DNA of 64,000 bases from Candidatus Poribacteria bacterium (GTDB taxonomy: Bacteria > Poribacteria > WGA-4E > PCPOR2b): NCBI GenBank assembly GCA_963665285.1, contig OY762266.1:2848001-2912000 (forward strand). The letters are read 5' to 3'. Shown in pieces: positions 8,155 to 9,302 of this stretch; positions within the stretch are counted from its first letter, which is position 1, and each line of letters begins with the position of its first letter. The notes beneath the pieces are model-generated. The model was not told where the DNA came from and did not search any database. It saw nothing but the letters and a program-made list of their open reading frames with translations. The position numbers and the translations under genes are program-made.

Positions 8155-9144
8155 TCACTCTGGAGCACTCCACATATAAATGAGTTCTCCATTTTGGCTT
8201 TCTTCCGTGGAGATCCAAGGAAAATTGCACTGCTCCATCTTCTCAATCAAACGGTTCATCACGCGAATCGGATTGGAAACGTGGCACGCGTCTCTCAGCT
8301 GCGATTCGGTAACTACCTGCTGGTTGATTATGTATTCGATTGCACACTGCTCATCTAAATTGAGGAGTATTTCCTTTCGTTGATCGTCTGCTGCCACCGG
8401 TAAGCCCGAATCAATTTCTCCTATTTCCTCAATTTCCGGGGTTTCCTCCACGGCTTCCTCTGGATTCGTCACTACCGGCTGTGCTAGATTTTGGCAAGTT
8501 GGAACTACTGCTTCCGTAATCCTATCTTTGATTCTGTCCAAATCGCCTTGTAGTTCCTGGATCTCCTCGTGCAACTGCGTGATGAGCTCGAGCGGATCTG
8601 TGTCGTTATTGATCGGCGAGTTTAACTGCTCATCGTCAGGAACGTCACTGGACTCTCCCCAATCCGAGCCTATCTCCTCCATGAAAGGAGGGTAGAGGTT
8701 ATCTATGCTCGGTGCAGCGGAAGGTAGTCCCACATTCCCAGAATCCGCCGTGTCTGAGTCATTATGGTGCGATTCACAAGGTGGATTATCGATAAGTTCA
8801 ATGTTGTACTTATAGGGACTGACTCCGCCTCTACTATCAATGTATGAAACCTTGATGTGGCAGCAATCACCGACTTCTAATTGATCCATTTGCCCCTGAA
8901 TCTGTCTGAGGGTTCGTGCGTGATAGTCTCGAAGCATCTCTGGCATACCTTTGACCAGCTGCTTAAAATAAGCTATCGGATCGCAGTCGGACTGAAAATA
9001 TGGTGTTTTGGTAAGCGGTTGCGTCAAACTTGGAAACCGCACAATTTTGGATGGTACTGGATTCTCTAACGCTTCAAGTTCAATTCCCCACTGGAGCGAC
9101 GCCTCTTTTATGCAGGTTGCGACGTAAGTATGATGTTTGGGCAT
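8155..9144 (-). CDS. Hypothetical protein: acidic linkers, short coiled coil, possible C-terminal winged-helix domain
   Basis: 329-aa ORF with AAGGAG RBS; LITQLHEEIQELQGDLDRIKDRI heptads; last ~70 aa show a helix-helix-helix-hairpin pattern. Confidence 0.7.
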   Translation of the reverse strand: MPKHHTYVATCIKEASLQWGIELEALENPVPSKIVRFPSLTQPLTKTPYFQSDCDPIAYFKQLVKGMPEMLRDYHARTLRQIQGQMDQLEVGDCCHIKVSYIDSRGGVSPYKYNIELIDNPPCESHHNDSDTADSGNVGLPSAAPSIDNLYPPFMEEIGSDWGESSDVPDDEQLNSPINNDTDPLELITQLHEEIQELQGDLDRIKDRITEAVVPTCQNLAQPVVTNPEEAVEETPEIEEIGEIDSGLPVAADDQRKEILLNLDEQCAIEYIINQQVVTESQLRDACHVSNPIRVMNRLIEKMEQCNFPWISTEESQNGELIYMWSAPE

Positions 9145-9254
9145 TTAAAAGCTCTCCTTGGTAACACATCATTATAATAGTACAATAGATGTCTCGGTAA
9201 GTTCGTCATACGAAACGTGAACAGCTGCATAAAAGTTACAAAAAATTACGTTTT

Positions 9255-9302
9255 CTACAATATATAGTGCTATACTTTTTGAAAATCAACTATATGTAGT
9301 AT
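9255..9302. promoter_or_regulatory. Tandem NrdR-box-like palindromes
   Basis: CTACAATATATAGTGC (9255-9270) and CAACTATATGTAGTAT (9287-9302) match consensus acaCwAtATaTwGtgt and are 32 bp apart; they overlap a minus-strand TTGATT-17 bp-TATATA promoter candidate. Confidence 0.7.

Follow-up and report, generated by a model that had tools for sequence, protein, structure and literature searches.

NrdR is usually described as a regulator of ribonucleotide reductase genes only; the comparative work of 2005 in which the NrdR box was defined reportedly also listed salvage and replication genes. The NrdR regulon is among the most conserved ones (PMC5343134, accessible text). The operators of the reductase operons, such as nrdRJ of S. 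coelicolor and nrdHIEF and nrdDG of E. coli, consist, according to the accessible portions of the respective reports (PMC13584703, PMC9110341), of two 16-bp boxes with six key bases each, which are separated by a 15-16-bp linker of free sequence and overlap a predicted sigma70 promoter. In the available part of a recent preprint on E. coli and P. aeruginosa, paired boxes are reported only at reductase operons and the proposed additional targets have single boxes (bioRxiv 2025.03.28.645925). Among the proposed non-reductase targets preceded by an NrdR box are the dnaA gene of Shewanella and the topA gene of Pseudomonas, of which topA did not respond to the loss of nrdR (bioRxiv 2025.03.28.645925). 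The box search of another study covered, as far as its accessible text goes, reductase promoters only (PMC12051234).

Here we analyze an operator from Candidatus Poribacteria that shares with the reductase operators the two boxes, the six key bases, the free linker of the same length and, putatively, the overlap with a predicted sigma70 promoter, but differs from them in that the adjacent gene encodes neither a reductase nor a recognizable nucleotide-related protein, and in that an ECF-type promoter is located downstream of the operator. Unlike the single boxes at dnaA and topA (bioRxiv 2025.03.28.645925, accessible part), the poribacterial sites are properly spaced, clade-conserved pairs at three loci without an obvious DNA function. 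The literature searched, which included few subscription papers, contained no description of the present case, and among the papers listed none pairs an ECF promoter with an NrdR operator. We estimate at about 60% the probability that this conserved NrdR-type operator allows dATP/ATP-NrdR to repress a predicted housekeeping promoter, with an older predicted ECF promoter driving the gene under stress.

The box pair and its probable target gene

The source genome is a single contig of 6.26 Mb (99% complete), and the window, that is, the entire stretch of 64,000 nucleotides analyzed, includes a gene for an acidic protein of 329 aa (8155..9144, minus strand; pI 4.3) whose named homologs are all from Candidatus Poribacteria. 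The gene is preceded by a Shine-Dalgarno sequence, AAGGAG (9154..9159, minus strand), assigned from the sequence, in which AGGAG is invariant in alignment A4. Its upstream neighbor, ppk2 (9397..10281; PF03976, E=1e-104), is likewise encoded on the minus strand, with its end at 9397. No intrinsic terminator was found between 8000 and 9600, so read-through from ppk2 into the ORF may occur; the leader region (9050-9500) gave no Rfam match to a structured RNA at E up to 1. A small hairpin located 3' of the ppk2 stop codon (9338-9361) shows paired changes in some relatives and has no T-tract. Metatranscriptome contigs spanning the ORF were present in 4 of the 24 runs listed, such contigs being uninformative on transcription starts, strand and level.

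The two 16-bp near-palindromes that the earlier note had pointed out between these genes are indeed present, with the spacing and the distance it claimed: the gene-distal box 1, CAACTATATGTAGTAT (9287..9302), and the gene-proximal box 2, CTACAATATATAGTGC (9255..9270), neither assigned to a strand, start 32 bp apart, are joined by a 16-bp linker and lie 111-158 bp upstream of the ORF. The six positions described as highly conserved in NrdR boxes in the accessible text of PMC13584703, C4, A6, A8, T9, T11 and G13, are all preserved in both boxes (12/12), and box 1 is identical to box 2 of E. coli nrdHIEF at 14 of 16 positions in the box table of that report. By consensus score, this is the top pair of the whole 6.26-Mb genome. 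A weight matrix that was derived from 14 distinct boxes out of the 21 best nrdR loci, and to which the site itself did not contribute, places it third (25.5 bits) after the nrdR pair, which belongs to the training set (35.9 bits), and a pair at genome position 1168425 (27.7 bits). Contrary to the concern that such scores might be indistinguishable from an AT-rich background, 4.74 Mb of intergenic DNA simulated with an order-3 Markov model contained no pair of at least 18 bits at 31/32 spacing, and the genome has four such intergenic pairs at 31/32 spacing versus two across 24 other spacings.

The boxes could nevertheless be a look-alike in AT-rich promoter DNA, a site of another factor or a roadblock to read-through from ppk2, given that TATATA-rich promoter DNA is similar to the center of the box and that the loose box pattern, used as a negative control, matches in 4 of 5 nrdR-less genomes. 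However, the five matches in those genomes all score below 18 bits (7.8-17.6), C4 and G13, which are not AT bases, do not vary at the poribacterial site, and the pair persists where ppk2 is missing; we consider these options very improbable. The boxes are confirmed as a real pair which, judging from the sequence, would be an NrdR-type operator rather than a chance occurrence, and binding of NrdR to it is highly probable. Elsewhere in the window, there is a single good box at 31306 and a 19.1-bit pair within a called ORF at 41818.

The genome encodes one NrdR (genome 2764376-2764831; TIGR00244, 187 bits), which retains R12, D15, R17, R26-29 and R37, the residues that contact DNA according to the accessible part of PMC9110341. 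The nrdR gene, followed by nrdJ (class II), forms the only reductase operon found, about 93 kb from the ORF; genome searches for nrdD and nrdB gave no match. A box pair also precedes nrdR-nrdJ, and the best pair has a 31-bp spacing in 29 of 30 nrdR loci, so that the presence of the regulator and of boxes at the reductase operon, on which the original proposal depended, is borne out. Separately, no nrdR match was obtained in any of the 14 genomes searched from family f2 (G029 and 13 others, mostly 93-99% complete), which makes a family-wide loss of NrdR probable from these sequences.

Orthologs of the ORF are represented in 35 of 61 genomes, the source genome included, with 27/28 genomes of family f1 and 7/7 of family f4; none was found in families f2 (0/14) and f3 (0/11). 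When the upstream regions of all 35 orthologs were examined, the pair was found in 20, namely in 18 of the 20 members of the genus and in two further genomes, G022 (60% protein identity) and G024 (50%). It is absent in all 13 ortholog-bearing genomes outside this group, 12 of which have nrdR, and in G011 and G008 it has shrunk to a single box that borders an inserted repeat. All 12 key bases are present in 19 of the 20 box-bearing orthologs, with C4 and G13 invariant, and the linker is 15-16 bp long in 20/20, with a conservation of 0.69 versus 1.0 at the key bases. Because G022 and G024, which represent two genera, carry the pair at loci without ppk2, the boxes can be assigned to the ORF, as had been assumed from gene order, and ppk2 is ruled out as their target. 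In a protein tree constructed without G005 and three loci of f4, the box-bearing genes form one clade; the 20 cases therefore are one event kept under selection rather than independent observations, and the distribution would fit a single gain of the pair followed by two or three losses.

Predicted promoters and further NrdR-type pairs

A predicted sigma70-type promoter, P1 (TTAACA-18-TATAGT, 10/12; 9289..9318, minus strand), has its -10 element within box 1, and its transcription start, expected near 9280, would be followed closely by box 2. The promoter scan returned three sites in the region against 3.1 expected, so the call of P1 rests on conservation: it reaches at least 9/12 in 14 of the 20 box-bearing orthologs, its -10 element being itself part of the box, whereas G022 and G024, the two most distant box-bearing genera, have a weak -35 element (2-3 of 6). 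The location of the -10 element within box 1 would be the usual repressing geometry for this predicted promoter, and P1 is fairly likely to be the point at which NrdR acts. The promoter originally suggested here, TTGATT-17-TATATA, did not hold up: its hexamers are present, yet it scores at least 8/12 in only 2 of the 20 box-bearing orthologs, and it was dropped as not conserved.

A second predicted promoter, P2 (TGTAAC-tttt-N13-CGTT; 9214..9240, minus strand), begins 14 bp past box 2, with transcription expected to start near 9205, is invariant in alignment A4 and has the features of an ECF-sigma promoter, with an AAC -35 element, a 16-17-bp spacer and a CGT -10 element at a conserved position. 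It resembles the promoters of SigW, SigM, SigX and SigV of Bacillus in the AAC-ended -35 element, the T-tract, the spacer length and the CGT element, in agreement with the tgaAACntttt / CGT pattern given for Bacillus ECF promoters in the accessible text of PMC5758882; the accessible text of PMC7826278 contains no usable ECF group motif. A motif of the P2 type precedes 35 of 35 orthologs, boxed or unboxed, versus 79 of 5037 crude gene calls (1.6%). The strict form of the motif is found ahead of only 7 of the 5037 genes, among them an ECF/anti-sigma operon and hrcA-grpE-dnaK-dnaJ, in which we take the three genes beside hrcA to be grpE, dnaK and dnaJ from reading their sequences.

The candidate ECF sigma factor (genome 2032288-2032845) scores best with the SigW and SigM models, yet below every equivalog cut-off. 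It is treated as a candidate only because the motif occurs at its own gene in 16 of 30 loci (16/20 in the genus and 0/10 outside) and only 11 of 27 hrcA loci carry it. An ECF regulon is plausible on these sequence grounds, and an ECF sigma factor most probably drives P2 under stress, the SigW/SigM-like protein being a candidate for this role. At hrcA-grpE-dnaK-dnaJ (G000:C1:2566197), the ECF-type motif is located upstream of a sigma70 promoter and a CIRCE-like repeat in those 11 of 27 loci.

Alternatively, the ECF promoter could be what NrdR controls, from a position upstream of it, either by blocking the alpha-CTD/UP region or as an activator, with P1 being incidental. Such an arrangement would be compatible with the gap between box 2 and the ECF -35 element, which measures 14 bp in most cases (13 genomes), 15 bp in one and 25 bp, that is, one extra helical turn, in five, and with the weakness of P1 in the two most distant box-bearing genera. 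In one genome, however, the gap is 28 bp, the +11 forms resemble a local tandem duplication in alignment A4, and in the accessible parts of PMC13584703 and PMC9110341 NrdR represses through overlap with the polymerase site; action through P2 appears unlikely. With repression of P1 as the preferred reading, the proposal that the ORF is a new member of the NrdR, that is, dNTP-sensing, regulon is likely to be right, considering the operator, the presence of nrdR and the conservation of the pair, and the sequences suggest that the locus likely belongs to a small expansion of the NrdR regulon in this lineage, with the operator superimposed on an older ECF-type promoter.

Two additional conserved pairs precede genes for envelope proteins. 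The second-best pair of the genome (1168425-1168472, 27.7 bits) directly follows a near-perfect sigma70 promoter (TTGACA-17-TATAGT) and is located upstream of a gene for a 340-aa membrane protein that matches no family and has a match in 41 of 41 Poribacteria genomes; we presume from its short repeats that this protein is bactofilin-like. This pair scores at least 18 bits in 22 of 30 loci, comprising all 20 of the genus along with G022 and G023, and G026 also has a pair. At this locus, G023 has three consecutive boxes, and lptF is divergently oriented in the genus only. A weaker pair (6031470-6031516), which flanks a TATAAT element and in which C4 is replaced by G in one box and A6 by G in the other, precedes a gene for a TonB-dependent receptor; it scores at least 15 bits in 15 of 18 scorable loci of the genus and in 0 of 11 outside, one locus being too short. 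The sole reductase of the genome, NrdJ, requires B12; no riboswitch, including a cobalamin riboswitch at the TonB gene, reached the gathering score at the TonB, membrane-protein or nrdJ loci. A further pattern match, conserved in G010, G012 and G022, was rejected as lying inside a coding region. Together with the pair at the ORF, the predicted non-reductase pairs of the genome number three.

Taken at their broadest, these sites could amount to a clade-wide master switch in which dATP gates nrdR-nrdJ, the membrane protein, which would be a beta-helix protein, the TonB receptor and a phylum-specific stress protein of new fold, and merges with ECF signaling, possibly from upstream; we view this as possible but doubtful.

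NrdR-like pairs also occur in G042 (20.8 bits), where they lie within a non-coding element that is roughly 362 bp long, is bounded by 16-bp terminal inverted repeats and has six copies, in L175 (about 1430-1795), L182, L186, L187, L188 and L190, the last apparently with an inserted IS66. The element was not found in G000. Elements of this type could seed new NrdR targets. The same genome contains a separate, strong intergenic pair (L189:1498-1545, 26.6 bits), downstream of which the locus shows no clear gene.

Domain architecture and possible role of the 329-aa protein

In the AlphaFold model, the segments aa 1-120 and about 256-326 form domains predicted with confidence (pLDDT above 90), and there is a helix at aa 184-217, in accord with the domain sketch of the earlier note (N-terminal domain, coiled coil, C-terminal winged helix), which the structure comparison likewise supports. 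The N-terminal domain (8785..9144, minus strand; pLDDT 92) is shared with an order-wide paralog family. The predicted long helix or coiled coil (8494..8595, minus strand), recognized from the model and a heptad-like pattern, is located between two disordered acidic linkers, and the C-terminal domain (aa 256-326; 8167..8379, minus strand) is a net-acidic winged helix identified with Foldseek. Searches of the ORF against Pfam, NCBIfam, PHROGs and PDB sequences gave only coiled-coil-type noise, and ESM Atlas scores were 0.80 or below. A profile search of 1.84 billion representatives yielded 61 matches, of which those covering most of the domain are family members; the long multi-stretch matches cover about 25 residues, the two inspected being unrelated repeat proteins, and no clear relatives outside the family were detected in this search. 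The paralog (genome 2987080-2987901) has the same N-terminal domain (26% identity over 125 aa) and a longer coiled coil, and is devoid of the winged helix. Matches to its N-terminal domain came from 58 of 61 genomes of Poribacteria, some of them through cross-match, and its family spans the order, with the nrdR-less f2 among its carriers; no boxes were found at the paralog among the loci listed.

The winged helix shares its fold with ScpB, SelB and MarR/OmpR (Z about 8), the matches to ArlR, ScpB, SelB and MarR-type proteins being tied at Z 8.7-7.5 (rmsd 2-3.5), with ScpB at ranks 2-3 and most of the top matches being DNA-binding regulators. It differs from all of these in being a single acidic winged helix that follows an unmatched N-terminal domain and a coiled coil and shows no sequence match; ScpB has two tandem winged helices and a family HMM, whereas here one winged helix is modeled and there are no family matches. 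Alignment A5, used for winged-helix family searches, included five full-length rows, so that two of these searches were not confined to the winged helix. DNA-binding winged helices of the MarR/OmpR type are expected to have a basic recognition helix and wing, which the C-terminal domain does not: its net charge is -2 to -10 in all 19 members that have the domain.

A transcription regulator of the conventional winged-helix type, or a nucleoid protein, with NrdR heading a small regulatory cascade, would account for the fold matches to ArlR, MarR, OmpR, BlaI, Fur and TrmBL2 and for the weak PHROG MarR matches that 2 of 16 members gave at E about 0.05, and dimerization through the coiled coil is conceivable. 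On the other side, the recognition helix has a net charge of -3 to +1, the wing is mostly acidic (-6 to +1), K302 is alone among the residues of this part in being both basic and conserved, and neither G020 nor any of the paralog family has the winged helix. We rate this possibility as quite improbable.

The main rival to an adaptor role is that of a replication or repair factor acting on nucleic acids under the same NrdR control, the strongest version of the idea in the earlier note. In such a protein, the OB-like N-terminal domain would bind single-stranded DNA and the acidic winged helix would recruit partners, in the layout of an OB-like N-terminal domain and a winged helix known from RPA32/Stn1. 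The top VIA match of the N-terminal domain is phage PRD1 SSB P12 (Z 4.2, rmsd 4.1, 82 aligned residues), with eIF5A also listed; the Foldseek viral library gave several weak rows for DUF669, SSB and eIF5A; the hydrophobic and aromatic residues W19, Y59, Y101 and Y113 are invariant or nearly so; and a role in DNA metabolism would be compatible with NrdR control. However, no structural match reached Z 5, unrelated folds tie with P12, and Foldseek returned nothing for this domain at E up to 0.001, all values exceeding 0.01, which does not imply a novel fold. The charge of the domain varies from -5 to +7 among members, in G005 a 1.57-kb insertion carrying a transposase-sized ORF disrupts the gene, and the co-targets are envelope genes. 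This role seems rather unlikely, even if less so than that of a conventional regulator.

The suggestion of a lineage-specific replication or nucleoid factor is weakly or not supported, in view of the pI of 4.3 and the acidic winged helix in 19/19 members, to which are added the broken gene in G005, the lack of the winged helix in G020, the lack of matches to the gene in f2 and f3, the predicted ECF promoter at 35/35 orthologs and the envelope co-targets. Because the winged helix is acidic in all 19 members, we tentatively favor a protein-binding adaptor over a nucleoid factor.

Proposed regulation and biological implications

Under the repression of P1 that we favor, and by the mechanism known for NrdR, dATP would accumulate when replication is idle, and an NrdR tetramer would occupy both boxes, bend the DNA and block P1; once dNTPs are consumed, P1 would open along with nrdR-nrdJ. 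P2, read by a SigW/SigM-like ECF sigma factor, would represent the ancestral control, onto which the operator would have been gained once, in the ancestor of three genera. The product may be a cytoplasmic adaptor that oligomerizes via its coiled coil and whose acidic, ScpB-like winged helix contacts proteins and not duplex DNA. As two envelope genes have the same type of operator, NrdR would have been reused in this clade to switch genes outside nucleotide synthesis according to growth state.

The three pairs, conserved and correctly spaced at genes unrelated to nucleotides within one lineage, open the way to a cheap and direct test of NrdR as a general growth sensor, given that heterologous NrdR binds foreign operators according to the accessible text of PMC13584703. 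The site also offers, for the first time, a way to approach the regulation of an unnamed protein family whose N-terminal domain, with no clear structural match, extends through the paralog to nearly all Poribacteria genomes analyzed. Should the switch indeed operate clade-wide, nucleotide status and ECF-sigma stress signaling would be combined at one gene.
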